A stretch of 11,359 nucleotides of DNA from a virus (lineage: Duplodnaviria > Heunggongvirae > Uroviricota > Caudoviricetes): the IMG/VR virus record IMGVR_UViG_2563366802_000007; one strand, given 5' to 3'. Of this stretch, positions 1-11,359 are shown piece by piece. Under the pieces are notes generated by a model. That model saw only the letters and a list, made by a program, of their open reading frames with translations, was not told the origin of the DNA and ran no database searches. Position 1 is the stretch's first letter; each line of letters opens with the position of its first letter. Made by a program: the position numbers and the translations under genes.

Positions 1-618
1 TCGCAGGTAAAAAGTGCTGCCACGCAGACCTTTGATGGTATTGCACAGAATATGGCGGCGATGCTGACCGGCAGTGAGCAGAACTGGCGCAGCTTCACCC
101 GCTCCGTGCTGTCCATGATGACAGAAATTCTGCTTAAGCAGGCAATGGTGGGGATTGTCGGGAGTATCGGCAGCGCTATTGGCGGGGCTGTTGGTGGTGG
201 CGCATCCGCGTCAGGCGGTACAGCCATTCAGGCAGCTGCGGCGAAATTCCATTTTGCGACCGGAGGATTTACGGGAACCGGCGGCAAATATGAGCCAGCG
301 GGGATTGTCCACCGCGGGGAGTTTGTCTTCACGAAGGAGGCAACCAGCCGGATTGGTGTCGGGAACCTGTACCGCCTGATGCGGGGCTATGCGGAAGGGG
401 GGTATGTGGGTGCTGCCGGAAGTCCGGCGCAGATGCGGCGGGCCGAAGGCATTAATTTTAATCAGAACAATCACGTGGTGATTCAGAACGACGGTATCAA
501 CGGACAGGCCGGGCCGCAGCTGATGAAAGCGGTGTATGAGATGGCCCGTAAAGGTGCGCAGGATGAGCTCCGGCTGCAGTTGCGTGATGGCGGTCTGTTA
601 TCGGGGAGCGGGCGATGA
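1..618 (+). CDS. H: Tail tape measure protein, C-terminal part (5'-truncated by window edge)
   Basis: Frame 1 is open from nt 1 with no stop until TGA at 616-618. Gly/Ala-rich C-terminal region. Position immediately upstream of M, with stop overlapping the M start (ATGA), matches lambda H-M layout. Identification from synteny and recollection, not a search. Confidence 0.8.
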   Translation, partial: SQVKSAATQTFDGIAQNMAAMLTGSEQNWRSFTRSVLSMMTEILLKQAMVGIVGSIGSAIGGAVGGGASASGGTAIQAAAAKFHFATGGFTGTGGKYEPAGIVHRGEFVFTKEATSRIGVGNLYRLMRGYAEGGYVGAAGSPAQMRRAEGINFNQNNHVVIQNDGINGQAGPQLMKAVYEMARKGAQDELRLQLRDGGLLSGSGR

Positions 619-944
619 AAACATTTCGCTGGAAAGTGAAGCCGGATATGGAGGTGAACTCGCAGCCATCGGTGCGTGAAGTGCGTTTTGGTGACGGGTA
701 CTCACAGCGTATGGCGGCAGGGCTGAATGCTGACCTGAAAACATACAGGGTGACGCTTTCCGTGACCCGGGAGGAGGCCCGGCATCTGGAAGCGTTCCTG
801 GCAGAGCACGGTGGCTGGAAGGCATTTTTGTGGAAGCCACCCTATGCATACCGGCAGATAAAGGTGATCTGTGCCGGGTGGTCTGCGCGGGTCGGGATGT
901 TGCGCGTTGAGTTCAGCGCGGAGTTTAAGCAGGTGGTGAACTGA
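615..944 (+). CDS. M: Minor tail protein M (tail tip complex)
   Basis: 109-aa ORF, the same length as lambda gpM and recognisably similar to it as I recall (MKTFRWKVKP...FSAEFKQVVN). GGGGAG Shine-Dalgarno ~6 nt upstream. ATG overlaps H stop; its own stop overlaps L start. Confidence 0.9.
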   Translation: MKTFRWKVKPDMEVNSQPSVREVRFGDGYSQRMAAGLNADLKTYRVTLSVTREEARHLEAFLAEHGGWKAFLWKPPYAYRQIKVICAGWSARVGMLRVEFSAEFKQVVN

Positions 945-1642
945 TGCAGGATATTCACGAAGAAAGTCTGAACGAGTCGGTTAAGTCAGAGCAGTCACCG
1001 CGGGTGGTACTCTGGGAAATCGACCTGACGGTGCAGGGCGGTGAGCGGTATTTTTTCTGCAATGAGCTGAATGAAAAAGGGGAGCCGGTGACCTGGCAGG
1101 GGCGTGAATATCAGGCGTACCCGATTGAGGGGAGTGGCTTTGAGATGAGCGGGAAGGGCAGCAGTGCCAGACCGTCGCTGACGGTGTCCAATCTGTTCGG
1201 TCTGGTCACCGGGATGGCGGAAGACCTGCAGAGTCTGGTGGGGGCCACGGTGGTCCGCCGCCGGGTGTATGCCCGTTTTCTGGATGCGGTGAATTTCGTT
1301 GCGGGCAATCCGGAGGCCGACCCGGAGCAGGAGCTGACGGACCGGTGGGTGGTGGAGCAGATGTCAGCGCTGACAGCCATGACGGCCTCGTTTGTGCTGG
1401 CCACACCGACCGAGACGGACGGGGCGCTGTTTCCCGGTCGTATCATGCTGGCGAACACCTGTATGTGGACCTACCGCTCTGATGAGTGTGGTTACACGGG
1501 CGGGGCTGTGGCGGATGAGTTCGATAAACCCACCACGGATATCCGTAAGGACAGATGCAGCAAGTGCATGCGCGGGTGTGAACTGCGCAGGAATGTCGGC
1601 AATTTTGGCGGTTTCCTTTCCATTAATAAACTTTCGCAGTAA
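944..1642 (+). CDS. L: Minor tail protein L (tail tip complex)
   Basis: 232-aa ORF, same length as lambda gpL. Contains a C-terminal cysteine cluster (CMWTYRSDECGYTGG...CSKCMRGC). Start overlaps M stop (TGATG). Confidence 0.9.
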   Translation: MQDIHEESLNESVKSEQSPRVVLWEIDLTVQGGERYFFCNELNEKGEPVTWQGREYQAYPIEGSGFEMSGKGSSARPSLTVSNLFGLVTGMAEDLQSLVGATVVRRRVYARFLDAVNFVAGNPEADPEQELTDRWVVEQMSALTAMTASFVLATPTETDGALFPGRIMLANTCMWTYRSDECGYTGGAVADEFDKPTTDIRKDRCSKCMRGCELRRNVGNFGGFLSINKLSQ

Positions 1643-1652
1643 ATCCCGGTTT

Positions 1653-2396
1653 ATGACACAGACTGAATCAGCGATTCTGGCACATGCCCGGCGGTGTGCG
1701 CCTGCGGAGTCGTGCGGCTTCGTGATAAGCACGCCGGAGGGGGAGTGGTATATCCCTTGTGTGAATATTTCCGCGGAGCCGGAGGCGTATTTTCGTATCG
1801 CACCGGAAGACTGGCTGCGGGCAGAGATGCAGGGGGAGATTGTGGCACTGGTCCACAGTCATCCCGGTGGGCTGCCCTGGCTGAGCGAGGCTGACCGGCG
1901 GCTACAGATAAAAAGCGCACTGCCCTGGTGGCTGGTCTGCCGGGGTGACATTCACAAATTCCGCTGTGTGCCACATCTGACGGGACGGCGCTTTGAGCAC
2001 GGGGTGACGGACTGTTACACGCTGTTCCGGGATGCTTATCATCTGGCGGGGACTGAAATGCCGGATTTTCATCGCGAGGATGACTGGTGGCGCAACGGCC
2101 AGAACCTTTACCTGGACAATATGGCGGTCACCGGCTTTTACCGGGTGCCCCTGTCCTCTGCACAGGCGGGCGATATTCTGCTGTGCTGCTTTGGTGCTTC
2201 GGTACCGAACCATGCCGCCATTTACTGCGGTAACGGTGAGCTGCTTCACCATCTGCCTGAACAACTGAGTAAACGGGAGAGGTATTCCGAAAAATGGCAA
2301 CGACGAACGCATTCTGTCTGGCGTCACCGCCACTGGCACGCATCTGCCTTCACGGGGATTTACAACGATTTGGCCGCCGCCTCAGCCTGTATGTGA
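1653..2396 (+). CDS. K: Tail tip assembly protein K (N-terminal MPN/JAMM-like domain plus C-terminal NlpC/P60-like domain)
   Basis: 247-codon frame from the first ATG after the L stop. JAMM-type motif HSHPGGLPWLSEAD (H-x-H-x7-S-x2-D) at nt ~1851-1895. NlpC/P60-type Cys (DCYTLF, ~2010) and His (PNHAAIY, ~2205). 3' end overlaps I by ~100 nt in another frame, as in lambda. Start is uncertain because there is no strong SD; the next in-frame ATG is at 1827. Confidence 0.8.
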   Translation: MTQTESAILAHARRCAPAESCGFVISTPEGEWYIPCVNISAEPEAYFRIAPEDWLRAEMQGEIVALVHSHPGGLPWLSEADRRLQIKSALPWWLVCRGDIHKFRCVPHLTGRRFEHGVTDCYTLFRDAYHLAGTEMPDFHREDDWWRNGQNLYLDNMAVTGFYRVPLSSAQAGDILLCCFGASVPNHAAIYCGNGELLHHLPEQLSKRERYSEKWQRRTHSVWRHRHWHASAFTGIYNDLAAASACM

Positions 2397-2974
2397 ACAC
2401 GGCAGCGGAAGCCATTCGCGCCCTGTCGATGCAGATGCCGGGCTTTCGCCGTCAGATGAACGAAGGCTGGTACCAGATACGTATTGCCGGTGATGACACG
2501 GCACCGGAGGCGGTGTACGCCCGTCTTCACGAACAGCTGGGTGAGGGAACGGTCATCCACATTGTGCCGCGACTGGCCGGGGCCGGAAAGGGTGGACTGC
2601 AGATTGTGCTGGGGGCGGCAGCCATCGTGGGCTCTTTCTTCACGGCCGGTGCCTCGATGGCGTTATGGGGTACAGCCCTGAGTGCCGGCGGTTTTTCTGC
2701 CACCACAATGCTGTTTTCACTGGGTGCCAGCATGATACTGGGCGGTGTGGCCCAGATGCTGGCCCCGAAGGCAAAAACACCGGATTACCGCGCAACGGAT
2801 AACGGCAGACAGAACACGTACTTTTCCTCGCTGGATAACATGATTGCCCAGGGGAACCCGATGCCGGTGCCTTACGGGGAAATGCTGGTTGGCTCCCGCC
2901 GTATATCCCAGGACATCAGCACCCGTGATGAAGGCGGGGGCGGAAAGGTCGTGGTTATCGGGCGGCAGGGGTAA
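2294..2974 (+). CDS. I: Tail tip assembly protein I
   Basis: 226-aa ORF with GGGAGAGG upstream. Ubiquitin-like N-terminal part, Gly/Ala-rich hydrophobic middle (GLQIVLGAAAIVGSFFTAGASMALWG) and conserved C-terminus (QNTYFSSLDNM...YGEM.VGSR) resembling lambda gpI as recalled. Confidence 0.85.
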   Translation: MATTNAFCLASPPLARICLHGDLQRFGRRLSLYVNTAAEAIRALSMQMPGFRRQMNEGWYQIRIAGDDTAPEAVYARLHEQLGEGTVIHIVPRLAGAGKGGLQIVLGAAAIVGSFFTAGASMALWGTALSAGGFSATTMLFSLGASMILGGVAQMLAPKAKTPDYRATDNGRQNTYFSSLDNMIAQGNPMPVPYGEMLVGSRRISQDISTRDEGGGGKVVVIGRQG

Positions 2975-3020
2975 AAAGAATAAAAAAATCCCGCAGTGAT
3001 CGCGGACAGGAACTGCGGGA
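2975..3020 (-). terminator. Rho-independent terminator on minus strand (stem 2989-2997 / 3012-3020, then U-run from the plus-strand A-tract 2975-2988)
   Basis: Plus strand reads AAAGAATAAAAAAA-TCCCGCAGT-(14 nt loop)-ACTGCGGGA. On the minus strand this is a 9-bp GC-rich stem followed by UUUUUUUAUUCUUUUU. There is no T-run after the hairpin on the plus strand, so it is directional (minus). Confidence 0.55.
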
Positions 3021-3078
3021 GAGTTACGAAGATTAAGTGTAAGGAATTATTCTTATATCACGACAAAAAAATTAACGC
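2980..3078 (-). ncRNA. Candidate small non-coding RNA (~100 nt) antisense to the late operon, in the I-J intergenic insert
   Basis: Bounded by a sigma70-like promoter (minus strand TTCACA-N16-TATAAT) and the minus-strand intrinsic terminator. No ORF with an SD fits between them. The local sequence is AT-rich relative to the flanking tail genes. Ends are predicted, not mapped. Confidence 0.3.
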
Positions 3079-3084
3079 AGAGAA

Positions 3085-3112
3085 ATTATACGCGCCACAG
3101 TCAGTTTGTGAA
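3085..3112 (-). promoter_or_regulatory. Putative sigma70 promoter on minus strand (-10 TATAAT = plus 3085-3090; -35 TTCACA = plus 3107-3112; 16-nt spacer)
   Basis: Reverse complement of 3085-3112 reads TTCACA aactgactgtggcgcg TATAAT: a perfect -10 hexamer and 5/6 match to TTGACA. Predicted TSS is near plus 3078. Confidence 0.35.
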
Positions 3113-3184
3113 AATGTGAAGATATTCAGAATTTTTATGCCATTACCGGTTTTAACCAACAGGATTATCGGTGGGCATGAAAGA

Positions 3185-3220
3185 AAACCCCGGTATCTGC
3201 TGATACCGGGGTTTCTCTTT
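3185..3220. terminator. Strong perfect hairpin (13-bp stem 3185-3197 / 3202-3214, 4-nt loop) with U-rich tails on both strands; possible bidirectional terminator or insulator
   Basis: AAACCCCGGTATC-tgct-GATACCGGGGTTT followed by CTCTTT on plus. On minus the hairpin is followed by UUUUCUUUC. It lies ~100 bp upstream of the J start. Confidence 0.45.
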
Positions 3221-3317
3221 AGCATGGCAGAAATGTGTTTCATGCTTTTCGGGCGAAGGATATCCGACTTCTGTACGGAATGGCAAGTGGCGGTTAATTT
3301 ATTCAGGGGAAGGCTGT

Positions 3318-6300
3318 ATGGGAAAAGGTGGCGGTAAGGCACACACGCCTCGTGAGGCGAAGGATAATCTCAAATCCACGCAGATGATGAGCGTGATTGA
3401 TGCGATTGGTGAGGGACCGATAGAAGGTCCGGTGAAGGGACTGCAGAGTATCCTGGTGAACAAAACCCCGCTGACGGACACGGACGGTAATCCCGTGATA
3501 CACGGTGTGACGGCGGTCTGGCGCGCCGGGGAGCAGGAGCAGACACCACCGGAAGGCTTTGAGTCCTCCGGTGCTGAAACCGGACTGGGCGTGGAAGTGA
3601 CGAAGGCAAAACCGGTGACGCGCACCATTACGTCCGCGAACATTGACCGCCTGCGGGTTACCTTCGGGGTGCAGTCACTGGTGCAGACCACGTCAAAGGG
3701 CGACCGTAATCCTTCCTCTGTCCGGATTCTGATTCAGTTACAGCGTAATGGCCGCTGGGTGACGGAAAAGGATGTCACCATTAACGGCAAGACCACCTCG
3801 CAGTTCCTGGCCTCGGTGATTCTGGATAATCTGCCTCCCCGGCCCTTTAACATCCGGATGGTCAGGGAGACGGCGGACAGCACCACGGACCAGCTGCAGA
3901 ATAAGACGCTGTGGTCGTCATACACCGAAATCATCGATGTGAAACAGTGCTACCCGAACACGGCCATTGTGGGGCTGCAGGTGGATGCGGAGCAGTTCGG
4001 CGGCCAGCAGATGACGGTGAACTACCATATCCGCGGTCGCATCATCCAGGTGCCGTCAAACTATGACCCGGAAAAACGCACGTACAGTGGTATCTGGGAC
4101 GGCAGTCTGAAACCGGCATACAGCAACAACCCGGCCTGGTGCCTGTGGGACATGCTGACTCACCCGCGCTACGGCATGGGAAAACGTCTGGGGGCGGCGG
4201 ATGTGGACAAGTGGGCGCTGTATGCCATCGGGCAGTACTGCGACCAGACGGTCCCGGATGGTTTCGGGGGGACCGAGCCGCGGATGACCTTTAATGCGTA
4301 CCTGGCACAACAGCGTAAGGCGTGGGACGTTCTCAGTGATTTCTGCTCTGCGATGCGCTGTATGCCGGTATGGAACGGCCAGACGCTGACGTTCGTTCAG
4401 GACCGTCCGTCGGATGTGGTGTGGCCGTACACCAACAGCGATGTGGTGGTGGATGATAACGGCGTGGGTTTCCGCTACAGCTTCAGTGCCCTGAAGGACC
4501 GGCACACGGCAGTGGAGGTGAATTACACCGACCCGCAGAACGGCTGGCAGACCTCCACGGAACTGGTGGAAGACCCGGAAGCCATACTGCGCTACGGACG
4601 CAACCTGCTGAAGATGGACGCGTTCGGCTGTACCAGCCGCGGTCAGGCCCACCGTGCCGGGCTGTGGGTGATAAAGACCGAACTGCTGGAAACGCAGACG
4701 GTGGATTTCACGCTCGGGTCACAGGGGCTGCGTCACACACCCGGTGACATCATTGAAATCTGTGATAACGACTATGCCGGGACCATGACCGGCGGACGTG
4801 TCCTGTCCATCGATGCCGCCAGCCGTACCCTGACGCTGGACCGGGAGGTGACACTGCCGGAGACCGGCACGGCCACTGTTAATCTGATTAACGGCAGCGG
4901 TAAGCCGGCGAGCGTGGCCATCACCGCACACCCCGCGCCTGACCGGATACAGGTCAGCACCCTGCCGGATGGTGTGGAGACATACGGTGTGTGGGGACTC
5001 TCCCTGCCGTCACTGCGTCGTCGCCTGTTCCGCTGTGTCTCCATCCGGGAAAACACGGACGGCACCTTTGCCATCACGGCGGTGCAGCACGTACCTGAAA
5101 AAGAAGCCATCGTGGATAACGGGGCCCGCTTTGAGCCGCAGTCAGGCACCCTGAACAGCGTTATCCCACCGGCAGTGCAGCACCTGACGGTGGAGGTGAG
5201 CGCAGCTGACGGCCAGTATCTGGCGCAGGCTAAATGGGACACGCCGCGGGTGGTGAAGGGCGTGCGCTTCAGTCTGCGCCTGACCAGTGGTAAGGGAACG
5301 GATGCCAGACTGGTGACCACCGCCATCACCGCAGACACGGAGCACCGTTTCAGCGGCCTGCCACTGGGGGAATACACCCTGACGGTGCGGGCCATTAACA
5401 GCTACGGCCAGCAGGGCGAACCTGCGACCACCACCTTCCGGATTGCCGCACCGGCAGCACCGTCGCGGATTGAGCTGACGCCGGGGTATTTTCAGATAAC
5501 GGCGGTCCCGCGTCTTGCGGTGTATGACCCGACGGTACAGTTTGAATTCTGGTTCTCAGAAAAACGCATCACGAACACAGCACAGGTGGAAAAATCTGCC
5601 CGTTATCTGGGGACCGGCAGTCAGTGGACTGTCCAGGGGAGCCGGATTAAGCCGGGGACGGATTTCTGGTTTTACGTGCGAAGCGTCAACCTGGTGGGAA
5701 AATCTGCTTTTGTGGAAGCCAGCGGGCAGCCCAGCAATGATGGTGAAGGGTATCTGGAAATTTTCCGGGGGCTGATAGATGAGACGCTTCTGGGCCAGGC
5801 ACTGAAAGAGCGCATTGATGCTTCAGCGCTGCGTACGGAGGTCACGCAACTGGAAGAAGACATCCGTCAGCGGATGGACACGGATATCGCAGAAGTGACC
5901 CGGAAAATCGGGAAGGCGGAAAACAGCCTCACGCAGCTGGTTGCGAAAAAGAATGAGGACCAGACACTGGCCATCGCGCAGGTGAGCCAGAAAGTGGACC
6001 GGGTGAGCAGTGAAATCTCACAGACTGTCAGCCAGGGGCAGTCAGAAAACGCCCGACAGATAGCACAGGTCCGCCAGTACGTGGATAAAAAAGGGAGTGA
6101 AATTACCTCGACCACGGATAAAAAGCTGGGTGACCAGGCCGTGACCATACAGCAAATCCAGCGGGTTCAGTCAGACACGCGCAATGAGCTGAATGCCATG
6201 TATATGCTGAAGGTGCAGAAAACAAAAAACGGTATTCCCTATGTGGCCGGGATTGGTGCGGGGATTGAGGATGTTGATGGTCAGACCCTGAGTAACATTC

Positions 6301-7010
6301 TGCTGCAGGCCGATCGCATTGCGATGATTACCCCGGAGAACGGCAACACCACGCCGCTGTTTGTGGCGCAGGGGAATCAGCTGTTCATGAACGACGTGTT
6401 CCTGAAGCGACTGTTTGCGGTGAGCATCACGTCATCCGGCAATCCTCCGACGTTTTCCCTGACGCCGGATGGCAGGCTGACAGCCCGCAATGCGGATATC
6501 AGTGGAGCCATCACGGCGAATACCGGCACGCTCAATAATGTCACCATTAACGAGAACTGTGTCATCAGAGGGAAACTGTCTGCAAACCAGATTGAAGGCG
6601 ATCTCGTTAAAACAGTGGGTAAGGCTTTCCCTCGTGACTCCCGTGCACCGAAGCGTTGGCCATCAGGAACCATTACCGTCAGGGTTTATGACGATCAGCC
6701 GTTTAACCGGCAGATTGTTATTCCGGCGGTGGCTTTCAGCGGTGCCAGACATGAGCGGGAGAACAGCGATACTTATTCGTCATGCCGCCTGATAGTACGG
6801 AAAAACGGTGCTGAAATTTATAACCGTACCGCGCTGGATAATACGCTGATTTACAGTGGTGTTATTGATATGCCTGCTGGTCGCGGCCACATGACGCTGG
6901 AGTTTTCTGTATCAGCATGGTGGGTAAATGGCTGGTATCCCACAGCAAGTATCAGCGATTTGCTGGTTGTTGTGATGAAGAAAGCCACTGCAGGCATCAC
7001 GATTAGCTGA
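3318..7010 (+). CDS. J: Tail tip / host specificity protein J (central tail fibre)
   Basis: 1230-aa ORF with GGGGAAGG SD. Conserved J-like N-terminal region, including the [16 protein letters not shown] segment. Two fibronectin-III-like segments (~nt 5160-5740), a heptad-rich charged segment (~5750-6230) and a C-terminal domain ending ...[14 protein letters not shown]. Same position as lambda J, but longer than the 1132 aa I recall for lambda. Confidence 0.9.
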
Positions 7011-7077: not shown

Positions 7078-7677
7078 ATGCGTAAAGTTTGTGCAGCCAT
7101 TTTGTCCGCAGCCATCTGTCTGTCCGTATCCGGTGCGCCTGCATGGGCGTCTGAACATCAGCCCACACTGAGCGCGGGGTATCTTCATGCCCGTACGAAC
7201 GCTCCCGGCAGCGATAATCTGAACGGGATTAACGTGAAATACCGTTATGAGTTTACGGACGCGCTGGGGCTGATTACGTCCTTCAGTTATGCCAATGCTG
7301 AGGATGAGCAAAAAACGCACTACAGCGATACCCGCTGGCATGAAGATTCCGTGCGTAACCGCTGGTTCAGCGTGATGGCGGGGCCGTCTGTACGCGTGAA
7401 TGAATGGTTCAGCGCGTATGCGATGGTGGGTGTGGCTTACAGCCGTGTGTCGACTTTCTCCGGGGATTATCTCCGCGTAACTGACAACAAGGGGAAAACG
7501 CACGATGTGCTGACCGGAAGTGATGACGGTCGCCACAGCAACACGTCTCTGGCGTGGGGGGCTGGCGTGCAGTTTAACCCGACCGAATCCGTAACCATTG
7601 ACCTTGCTTATGAAGGTTCCGGTAGTGGCGACTGGCGAACGGATGCATTTATTGTTGGTATCGGATACCGTTTCTGA
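7078..7677 (+). CDS. lom: Outer membrane protein Lom (Ail/Lom/PagC family beta-barrel; lysogenic-conversion moron)
   Basis: 199-aa ORF with GAGAGG SD. N-terminal signal peptide with AWA-S cleavage site. Alternating amphipathic beta-strand pattern and C-terminal ...GIGYRF ending in an aromatic residue, typical of beta-barrel OMPs. Sits at the lambda lom position between J and stf. Confidence 0.9.
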   Translation: MRKVCAAILSAAICLSVSGAPAWASEHQPTLSAGYLHARTNAPGSDNLNGINVKYRYEFTDALGLITSFSYANAEDEQKTHYSDTRWHEDSVRNRWFSVMAGPSVRVNEWFSAYAMVGVAYSRVSTFSGDYLRVTDNKGKTHDVLTGSDDGRHSNTSLAWGAGVQFNPTESVTIDLAYEGSGSGDWRTDAFIVGIGYRF

Positions 7678-7828: not shown

Positions 7829-10549
7829 ATGACAGTAAAAATTTCTGGCGTGCTTAAAGATGGCACAGGAAAACCAGTACAGAACTGCACCATTGTGCTG
7901 AAGGCCAGACGAACCAGCAGCACGGTGGTGGTGAACACGGTGGCCTCTGAAAATCCGGATGAAGCCGGACGTTACAGCATGGATGTTGAGCATGGCCAGT
8001 ACAGCGTCACCCTGCTGGTTGAAGGTTTTCCGCCTTCACATGCCGGGACCATTACCGTCTATGAAGGTTCCAGACCAGGTACGCTGAATGATTTTCTCGG
8101 TGCCATGACGGAGGATGATGTCCGACCGGAGGCACTGCGCCGCTTTGAGCAGATGGTGGAAGAGGTGTCACGTAACGCCTCCGCGGTTGCACAGAATACG
8201 GCAGCCGCGAAAAAATCAGCCAGCGATGCCAGTGCATCAGCCAGCGAGGCGGCAACTCATGCAACCGATGCTGCAGCCTCAGCACGTGCCGCCAGCACGT
8301 CAGCCGGACAGGCCGCGTCGTCGGCTCAGTCAGCGTCTTCCAGCGCAGGAACGGCATCGACAAAGGCCCGTGAAGCAGCAAAAAGTGCTGCTGCTGCAGA
8401 GTCATCAAAAAGCGCGGCAGCTACCAGCGCCAGTGCCGCGAAAACGTCAGAAACGAATGCCGCAGCATCACAAAAATCGGCAGCCACTTCTGCATCCACA
8501 GCGACCATGAAGGCGTCAGAAGCTGCCACCTCGGCACGGGGTGCGGCGGCCTCAAAAGAGGCAGCGAAATCTTCAGAAACGAATGCATCATCAAGTGCCA
8601 GTAGTGCAGCTTCCTCGGCAACGGCGGCAGGAAATTCCGCGAAGGCGGCAAAAACGTCCGAGACGAACGCTAAGTCTTCTGAAACAGCAGCGGGACAGAG
8701 CGCCTCAGCTGCGGCAGGTTCAAAAACAGCGGCTGCATTATCTGCCAGTGCCGCGTCAACAAGTGCCGGGCAGGCCTCAGCCAGTGCCACCGCCGCCGGA
8801 AAATCGGCAGAAAGCGCCGCATCATCCGCTTCAACAGCCACAACGAAGGCTGGCAAAGCCACTGAGCAAGCCACTGCAGCAGCGAGGTCTGCTTCTGCAG
8901 CAAAAACCTCTGAAACAAATGCAAAGACTTCAGCAGACAATGCTGCTTCCTCTAAGGCGGCAGCCGCATCGTCAGCCAGTTCAGCGGCGTCATCGGCATC
9001 ATCTGCGTCTGCTTCAAAAGATGAGGCGACCAGACAAGCGTCAGCAGCGAAAGGTAGTGCCACGACAGCAACAACGAAAGCATCAGAGGCGGCAGGCAGT
9101 GCGACGGCTGCATCTCAGAGCAAAGTTGCTGCTGAATCCGCGGCAACGCGCGCCGAGACAGCAGCAAAACGGGCAGAGGATATTGCATCCGCCGTGGCGC
9201 TGGAGGATGCGAGCACGACGAAAAAGGGGATAGTACAGCTCAGCAGTGCAACAAACAGCACCAGTGAAAAGCTGGCGGCAACGCCAAAGGCAGTTAAAAC
9301 TGTTAAAGATAGTTCAGTTCAAAAAACTGGCGACACAATGGGAGGGCAGTTAAAAATCAGCACGATAAATGCTCTTCGAATATTCAACCAAGCCTTTGGC
9401 CTTATTTTTAGGCGTTCCGAAGATCATCTTCATCTTATTCCGACTAATGAAGGGGAGGGGGAAAATGGAGACATCGGTTCATTAAGACCATTCTCTATAA
9501 ACTTAAGATCAGGGTTGGTGTCCATCGGTAATGGACTAAAAGTTGGTGGTAGTGTTACTGGTAATTTGACCGGAAACGCAGATACTGCGACCAAGATCAA
9601 GACAGCACGTAAGATTGGGGGCGTGGCATTTGATGGATCGGCAGATATCAACTTGCCTGGAGTCAACGCTACCGGTAATCAAAACACTACAGGTAATGCT
9701 GCGACCGCCACGAAACTTCAGGCAGCCAGAACGATTAACGGTGTGTCATTTGATGGTAGTGCAAATATCACATTGACCCCTTCAAATATTGGGGCATTGG
9801 CATTAACTGGAGGGACTCTTTCAGGTGGTTTAACTGCTGCTGGTGAGGTTATTTCAAGGTCAGCAAATGGTCTGCGTATTGCCTATGGCAACTATGGATT
9901 CTTTATCCGAAATGATGGATCAAACACATATTTTATGTTGACAGATTCGGGTAACAGTCTTGGTACGCACAATAGCTTAAGGCCGTTTATAATTAGTAAC
10001 CATACTGGCAATGTTACAATTGCAACTAAATTAAACGCGAGTGGTGGTATCACTGGATCTTTATCGGGTAATGCAAGCACAGCAACCAAATTGCAAACTG
10101 CAAGGACAATTAACGGCGTAAAATTTGACGGCTCGGCAAATATTGAAGCGTTTCCGCCAGGTGTTCCGCTGCCGTGGCCATCAGATACACCACCTGCAGG
10201 TTATGCGATCATGCAGGGGCAGACGTTTGATAAGGCAGCATATCCGAAACTGGCTATTGCCTATCCTTCAGGTGTTATTCCAGATATGCGCGGCTGGACA
10301 ATCAAGGGCAAACCCGCCAGTGGCCGGGCCGTATTGTCTCAGGAACAGGACGGCATAAAATCGCACACCCACAGCGCCAGCGCATCCAGTACGGATTTGG
10401 GGACGAAAACCACATCGTCGTTTGATTACGGCACTAAATCCACGAATAACACCGGGGCGCATACGCACAGTCTGAGTGGCTCTACGGGGTCTGCCGGTGT
10501 TCATACTCATGGTAATGGTATTCGTTGGCCCGGAGACTTCTTCCTATAG
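7829..10549 (+). CDS. stf: Side tail fibre protein Stf, main reading frame (ends prematurely relative to the conserved C-terminal tip; see 10476-10775)
   Basis: 906-aa ORF with GGTGGA SD. N-terminus ([20 protein letters not shown]...) resembles lambda Stf as recalled. Long Ala/Ser-rich low-complexity region, then three tail-fibre repeats, then a C-terminal part resembling the lambda Stf tip (PWPSD...[34 protein letters not shown]...). Frame terminates at TAG 10547-10549 inside the His-rich tip region. Confidence 0.85.
8180..9210 (+). repeat. Ala/Ser/Thr-rich low-complexity coding repeat within stf (recurring AAKTSETNA-type units)
   Basis: About 340 codons dominated by GCN/TCN/ACN codons. The motif A-K-(T/S)-SETNA recurs at least four times (nt ~8440, ~8566, ~8645, ~8897). 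It generates spurious long ORFs in other frames and on the opposite strand. Confidence 0.8.
9569..10150 (+). repeat. Three copies of a ~29-aa phage tail-fibre repeat within stf
   Basis: [29 protein letters not shown] (9569-9655), [29 protein letters not shown] (9689-9775) and [29 protein letters not shown] (10064-10150). The pattern resembles the Pfam 'phage tail fibre repeat' family found in T-even/P2/lambda-type fibres (assignment from memory). Confidence 0.7.
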
Positions 10550-10775
10550 ATCGTATTATCAACGTATTCAGACACAGTCAGCAGGTGCTCATACCCACTC
10601 GCTGTCTGGTACTGCAGCAAGTTCTGGCGCACATGCACATACTGTAGGTATTGGTGCGCATACGCACTCCGTTGCGATTGGTTCACATGGACACACCATC
10701 ACCGTTAACGCTGCGGGTAACGCGGAAAACACCGTCAAAAACATCGCATTTAACTATATTGTGAGGCTTGCATAA
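10476..10775 (+). CDS. stf: Stf C-terminal His-rich tip segment in the +1 frame (probable frameshifted continuation of stf, not an independent gene)
   Basis: Frame 0 is open from 10359 to TAA 10773-10775 and encodes ...[65 protein letters not shown], which matches the extreme C-terminus of lambda Stf as I recall it. No SD precedes the ATG at 10476. Stop overlaps the tfa start (TAATG). Confidence 0.6.
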
Positions 10776-11359
10776 TGGCATTCAGAATGAGTGAACAAGC
10801 ACGGACCATAAAAATTTATAATCTGCTGGCCGGAACTAATGAATTTATTGGTGAAGGTGACGCATATATTCCGCCTCATACAGGTCTGCCAGCAAACAGT
10901 ACCGATATTGCACCACCAGATATTCCTGCTGGCTTTGTGGCTGTTTTCAACAGTGATGAGGCATCGTGGCATCTCGTTGAAGACCATCGGGGGAAAACGG
11001 TTTATGACGTAGCGTCAGGGGACGAGTTATTTATTTCTGAACTCGGTCCGTTACCGGAAAATGTTACCTGGTTATCGCCGGAAGGGGAGTTTCAGAAGTG
11101 GAACGGCACAGCCTGGGTGAAGGATACGGAAGCAGAAAAACTGTTCCGGATCCGGGAGGCGGAAGAAACAAAAAACAACCTGATGCAGGTAGCCAGTGAG
11201 CATATTGCGCCGCTTCAGGATGCTGCAGATCTGGAAATTGCAACGGAGGAAGAAACCTCATTGCTGGAAGCCTGGAAAAAGTATCGGGTGTTGCTGAACC
11301 GTGTTGATACATCAACTGCACCTGATATTGAGTGGCCTACGAACCCTGTCAGGGAGTAA
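10775..11359 (+). CDS. tfa: Tail fibre assembly protein Tfa (chaperone for Stf)
   Basis: 194-aa ORF ending exactly at the window end (TAA 11357-11359). Sequence [34 protein letters not shown]... closely resembles lambda Tfa as recalled. Start is coupled to the stf C-terminal frame. Confidence 0.9.

Follow-up and report, generated by a model that had tools for sequence, protein, structure and literature searches.

An 80-bp deletion accounts for a frame break in the side tail fibre gene stf of a lambda-like Escherichia coli prophage

Phage lambda PaPa carries a frameshifted stf gene and makes no side fibres. Neither Stf nor Tfa was detected in its virions by mass spectrometry, and the phage remains viable through J in the absence of side fibres (PMC12617516; PMC10721106). 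PMC12617516 and PMC9659904 cite Hendrix and Duda (1992) for the frameshift (orf-401 / orf-314). According to the annotation of HK630 and lambda, the lesion is a single missing C in the middle of stf, within the region encoding the shaft. The tip of the related T4 fibre protein gp37 includes a six-stranded, antiparallel needle, built from one outgoing and one returning strand per chain, with the receptor-binding site in the head (PMC9659904). The gp37 residues G938, T939, V941, G943, Y949, Y953 and A955 are receptor determinants of the head domain, and substitutions at these positions alter or abolish the recognition of OmpC or LPS (PMC5221442).

Here we describe a broken stf gene in the tail-tip end of a lambda-like E. 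coli prophage. The stretch of DNA analysed, referred to as the window, comprises 11,359 nucleotides. An earlier note on this sequence had reported that the stf frame breaks inside the His-rich tip and had proposed a single-nucleotide indel as the cause.

Gene layout and the truncated stf frame

The window extends from the tape-measure gene to tfa (Table 1) and begins directly after a gap of 675 N (L004 1498-2172) within the tape-measure gene. As expected for a fibre of the lambda Stf / T4 gp37 type, a tfa gene with a PF02413 domain adjoins stf on its downstream side; it is undamaged and identical in sequence to WP_000885577.1. When the window (~11.4 kb) was compared with AR_0372, the only differences besides the deletion described below were 13 substitutions in J. 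Nine of these fall within 55 bp in the C-terminal third of the gene (6287-6341), which suggests that a short patch of the central fibre gene was exchanged by recombination or gene conversion.

Table 1. Features of the window, with positions counted from its first nucleotide.
Feature	Position	Strand	Basis or remark
Tape-measure gene, 3' part	at window start		
M	615-944		
L	944-1642		
K	1653-2396		placed by transfer from the RefSeq annotation of AR_0372
I	2294-2974		
J	3318-7010		
lom	7078-7677		
stf, truncated ORF, 906 aa	7829-10549	+	ORF, Pfam, comparison with intact allele
TGA in the +1 frame	10473-10475	+	bounds the two-frame overlap
Deletion junction, 3-bp microhomology GCC	10528-10530	+	prefix/suffix analysis, alignment
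Right repeat copy GCCCGGAG, retained	10528-10535	+	left copy GCCAGGAG lost with the deletion
Premature TAG of stf	10547-10549	+	results from the frameshift
Stranded 3' remainder of stf, +1 frame	10531-10775	+	100% identical to intact allele
tfa, tail fibre assembly chaperone	10775-11359	+	PF02413, E = 1.9e-44

The stf frame starts with ATG and comprises 906 codons plus a stop codon, in agreement with the earlier description of a 906-codon frame ending at 10549. A Pfam search of Stf returned PF08400 (phage_tail_N), PF21446, PF07484 (Collar) and PF03335. The PF08400 attachment domain, which covers residues 1-134 (E = 4.8e-70), identifies the protein as a member of this fibre family, and the attachment domain, the Gp34_trimer-like domain and the collar were detected alike in the truncated and the intact protein. 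The shaft (~8190-9270, residues ~120-480) is a long Ala/Ser/Thr-rich stretch of low complexity with recurring KTSETNA-like motifs; its DNA holds only one short tandem repeat, of 12 nt.

Residues 1-902 match the intact 1008-aa Stf exactly and are followed by four frameshift residues, DFFL, and the premature TAG, 17 nt downstream of the deletion junction. The break does lie inside the His-rich tip, and the conserved C-terminal tip is encoded in the +1 frame down to 10775. The collar and the outgoing strand of the needle remain in frame, and the returning strand and the C-terminus lie in the +1 frame beyond the premature stop. In the intact allele all four are encoded in one frame; in the window they are not. 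The stranded piece, 81 codons long, encodes what is left of the head domain as well as the His-x-His returning strand of the needle (PETSSY...). Pfam again detected a fibre repeat in the stranded ORF, and a PHROG search assigned the piece to phrog_295 (tail fiber, E = 2.4e-39). Together with the match of the intact form to the T4 gp37 tip described below, this establishes the similarity to Stf tips as genuine.

The extent of the second frame differs from what had been described. The downstream frame, said to be open over 10359-10775, is interrupted by the TGA at 10473-10475, so that its open part is limited to 10476-10775. The region in which both frames are open, previously given as 10359-10546, is correspondingly confined to 10476-10546 (71 nt). 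A scan of 10300-10800 for promoters and terminators yielded only weak consensus matches at background level.

The deletion and the gp37-type tip

The intact gene of AR_0372 has 3027 nt and encodes a protein of 1008 aa (WP_000216486.1), compared with 2947 nt in the window, which is 80 bp fewer. Intact stf is annotated as a single 3027-nt CDS, either WP_000216486.1 or WP_000216487.1. We located the junction by prefix/suffix comparison of the window stf with the intact gene of AR_0372. The two sequences agree from the 5' end as far as 10530 and from the 3' end back to 10528. The three shared bases, GCC, sit inside an imperfect 8-bp direct repeat, GCCAGGAG / GCCCGGAG, with 7 of the 8 positions matching; in the intact allele the left copy is found in the context G-GCCAGGAG and the right copy in the context A-GCCCGGAG. 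The junction in the window reads GTTGGCCCGGAG, and the missing 80-bp segment runs GCCAGGAGGCGG...CAAGTAA.

Alignment to homologues, which the earlier note had recommended, located the lesion in the same way. In the alignment with E. coli 7/2 and ATCC 25922, a single clean gap of 80 columns appeared, with 100% identity on both sides. A megablast search of complete E. coli genomes with 10200-10800 gave hundreds of matches at 99.8% identity, each in two pieces, in which the 601 query bases correspond to 681 bases of the record. Apart from the deletion, stf and tfa of the window are identical to those of AR_0372.

These comparisons revise the proposed cause. The tract CTTCTTCC, suggested as the site of a single-nucleotide indel, is indeed present at 10537-10544, but the tract and all sequence 3' of 10528 match the intact alleles. 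A 1-nt indel in CTTCTTCC is thus ruled out, and the frame is broken by the loss of 80 bp instead. Likewise, the ancestral Stf is a protein of 1008 aa rather than of ~980 aa. A 1-nt repair of the window sequence would yield 981 aa, still without the apex of the head domain. The loss equals 27 codons minus one base; as this is no whole number of codons, the 81 codons that follow are shifted to the +1 frame. A near-identical intact allele, a non-triplet loss, repeats at the deletion ends and a premature stop, the features of a pseudogene that arose by deletion, were all found at this locus.

To relate the missing segment to a known structure, we aligned the C-terminal 266 aa of the intact protein with T4 gp37. 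The alignment covers the whole gp37 tip chain (PDB 2XGF, 242 residues) with E = 2e-81. The collar, the His-x-His needle motifs and the C-terminus of the gp37 tip are conserved in the intact Stf allele. According to the 2XGF structure paper, the His residues of the needle reportedly coordinate iron. In contrast to these conserved parts, the head-domain segment of Stf is allele-specific and 18 residues longer than that of gp37. In the window most of this segment is missing, and the returning strand has moved out of frame. Alleles of lambdoid phages are hypervariable in the tip segment, on either side of which the His-box DNA is conserved.

The deleted residues P901-S927 (PGGGGSALAFYDGGGFTYVQNSQYQVS) fall opposite gp37 N937-S952. 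Note that gp37 residues were numbered by taking chain position n as residue n + 784, and that this numbering was checked against the residues named in PMC5221442. Judged from this alignment, the deleted stretch would represent the apex of the distal head domain, the part that contacts the receptor in gp37.

Origin and consequences of the frame break

Among the sequences searched, the deletion appears to be private to one draft assembly. An exact-sequence look-up returned the truncated 906-aa protein from one record only, scaffold KE137186.1 of GCA_000408605.1, a 2013-era draft scaffold assembly. The 39-nt junction was absent from 5,426 complete E. coli genomes, as well as from viral contigs, GTDB species representatives and JGI metagenome contigs. 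The undeleted form was found with the junction query in 403 complete E. coli genomes, as two pieces spanning 161 bases each. The junction-spanning ORFs of 88 aa and 99 aa gave no match in exact look-ups for independent assemblies, and a literature search with the assembly and scaffold accessions gave none either.

A junction unique to one assembly is also what would be seen if the strain carried an intact 1008-aa stf and 80 bp had been dropped in short-read assembly or gap-patching. We regard such an artefact as possible but doubtful. It would fit the draft state of the scaffold and the gap in the same prophage, 8.3 kb upstream, where 675 N stand in place of 505 bp in AR_0372. Both flanks match the intact allele at 100% identity, as would be seen if the assembly alone differed, and E. 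coli genomes often carry several prophages with similar stf tips, in up to six places per genome, which complicates assembly. However, only 3 bp are shared at the junction, whereas mis-joins in a k-mer graph would be expected to need long shared words, and the deleted segment is neither a tandem nor a low-complexity repeat. The 80-bp loss is moreover the sole indel in ~15.9 kb of alignment between the source scaffold and AR_0372, and short imperfect direct repeats at the ends are a classic signature of biological deletion. Because the ends show a 3-bp microhomology in short imperfect repeats, with no long repeat or tandem array, we favour a real deletion over an artefact.

Alternatively, a full-length or two-piece fibre might still be made, by +1 frameshifting within the 71 nt in which both frames are open (10476-10546) or by separate initiation of the downstream ORF, with GTG 10476, ATG 10509 and ATG 10515 as candidate starts. 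We consider this highly improbable. A small family of 82-aa proteins, phrog_36248, corresponds to just the C-terminal piece (E = 4.9e-42), and in the annotation of phage PhiR30_1 the C-terminal part of Stf appears as an ORF of its own, of 75 aa. The split in PhiR30_1, however, is a G6-to-G5 frameshift relative to PhiR26_1, and hence a separate inactivation rather than a conserved design. The nearest homologues of the window stf are one continuous ORF, which rules out a conserved two-ORF arrangement. The overlap has the same sequence as in the intact allele, in which it is translated in frame, and a recoding signal has therefore not evolved. Inspection of the sequence by eye revealed no slippery motif of the CUU-UGA type before the TAG, and no shift-prone codon with a stimulatory element in the context GAC TTC TTC CTA TAG, where no tRNA can re-pair in the +1 frame. 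A GGAG located 8 nt upstream of the CTA codon is likewise shared with the in-frame ancestor. By eye, neither the TAG nor the internal ATGs are preceded by a Shine-Dalgarno sequence at the correct spacing, and the source assembly has no gene called there. Frameshifting would still yield a product in which 27 residues of the receptor-binding apex are missing. We therefore reject both recoding and a conserved two-gene arrangement. In this respect the earlier note had ranked the explanations correctly, with an inactivation distinct from the lab-lambda lesion or a sequence error leading and recoding unlikely.

The lesion is thus a common type of inactivating mutation, with an error in the draft assembly as a possible alternative. 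More likely than not, stf was inactivated by a single recent 80-bp deletion that is present in the strain. The deletion would have occurred between the imperfect 8-bp repeats GCCAGGAG ... GCCCGGAG, with the crossover in the shared GCC. Replication slippage and microhomology-mediated deletion typically leave such a pattern, and we infer slippage as the mechanism. The intact segment folds no better than shuffled sequences (z = +1.29), giving no indication of slippage promoted by a hairpin; neither long repeats at the deletion ends nor a relevant tandem repeat in stf were found. The flanks are without divergence, and the deletion would therefore be very recent.

Loss of codons 901-927 would remove the apex of the head domain, and the shift of the remaining codons would leave untranslated the returning needle strand and the conserved C-terminus, whose sequence T4 and lambda have in common with the intact Stf. 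The 906-aa product would retain the attachment domain, the shaft and the collar, but of the needle just the outgoing half. By homology to gp37, such a truncated Stf would be predicted neither to form the intertwined trimeric tip nor to bind a receptor. By analogy with lambda PaPa, no functional side fibre is expected, and virions, if still made, would be without working side fibres and would rely on the central fibre J. An effect on tfa may be added to this. The tfa ATG overlaps the original stf stop (TAATG, 10773-10777), and ribosomes translating stf now terminate 226 nt upstream of this site. Therefore, the translational coupling of tfa to stf has probably been lost.

There is a slim chance that the deletion was selected, the loss of the side fibres or of the receptor-binding apex being of benefit to the prophage or its host. 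The benefit might then lie in a lower adsorption rate, an advantage proposed for lambda in crowded habitats, or in avoiding re-adsorption to lysogens, and the independent breaks in the head segment of the window stf and of PhiR30_1 would represent a recurrent adaptive off-switch rather than decay.

With inactivation by deletion as the preferred reading, the window stf is a further instance of the known lambdoid stf pseudogene, analogous to the lambda PaPa lesion. In both cases a gene pair of the Stf-then-Tfa family lies downstream of J and lom and is split into two frames by mutation, with an expected loss of dispensable side tail fibres. The lesions themselves differ. A single-base deletion in the middle of the gene, as in lambda PaPa, was not found in the window, where the distal head domain has lost 80 bp, leaving a stranded piece of just 81 codons. 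A 1-nt reversion could not restore wild-type Stf here.

PhiR30_1 (PV340558.1) resembles the window in that its lambdoid stf has suffered an independent frameshift where the head domain is encoded, which leaves a small C-terminal ORF. In contrast to the window, it carries another tip allele and has lost 1 nt from a G6 run, a lesion of the type that had been proposed for the window. In PhiR30_1, whose listed host is E. coli C, stf is present as three ORFs, with the distal split at the G6-to-G5 site (L005 3391-3396). The stf of mEp332 (L006) is also annotated as two ORFs, with 683 nt between them. Broken stf genes seem to be common in lambdoid phage records.

The stf gene of this prophage should accordingly be annotated as a pseudogene, or a possible assembly error, with an 80-bp deletion, and not as a truncated fibre plus a small ORF or a candidate recoding site. 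It adds one more case to the lambdoid side tail fibre genes that are readily lost, and it illustrates how quickly near-identical alleles resolve a frame break in a prophage. Beyond correct annotation and the correction of the proposed mechanism, the finding has little importance.

The I-J gap and an Rfam match in tfa

The gap between I and J (2975-3317, 343 bp) contains a homologue of PasB on the minus strand, at ~2982-3078. PasB is an Hfq-dependent prophage sRNA of 83 nt in EPEC E2348/69. The published Northern probe for PasB, AATCCCGCAGTGATCGCGGAGCT, matches window positions 2987-3006 at 20 of its 23 bases. The homologue is bracketed by a promoter-like site on the minus strand (TTCACA-16-TATAAT, 3112->3085, 11 of 12 positions matching) and by a terminator hairpin with a U-tract on the same strand (3006->2990). 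Its predicted fold has a free energy of -19.4 kcal/mol (z = -2.3). The PasB locus of E2348/69 lies in the same I-J gap; the -10 box, the 5' region and the terminator align, and the middle has diverged. We found no Rfam model for PasB, and the locus is unannotated in RefSeq relatives. An ORF at 2996-3337 had no PHROG match.

A second strong hairpin is present in the gap at ~3189-3212. It reads CCCCGGTATC-TGCT-GATACCGGGG, has T-rich tracts on both sides and looks like a bidirectional terminator. The whole I-J gap is ~91% conserved in PPompW and in Stx-converting phages.

Rfam IS009 (RF02111) matches inside tfa, at 11118-11316 on the plus strand, over the full model and with 225 bits. A 2026 preprint names IS009 as the commonest Rfam match near PasB. 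The IS009 family evidently corresponds to tfa coding sequence.
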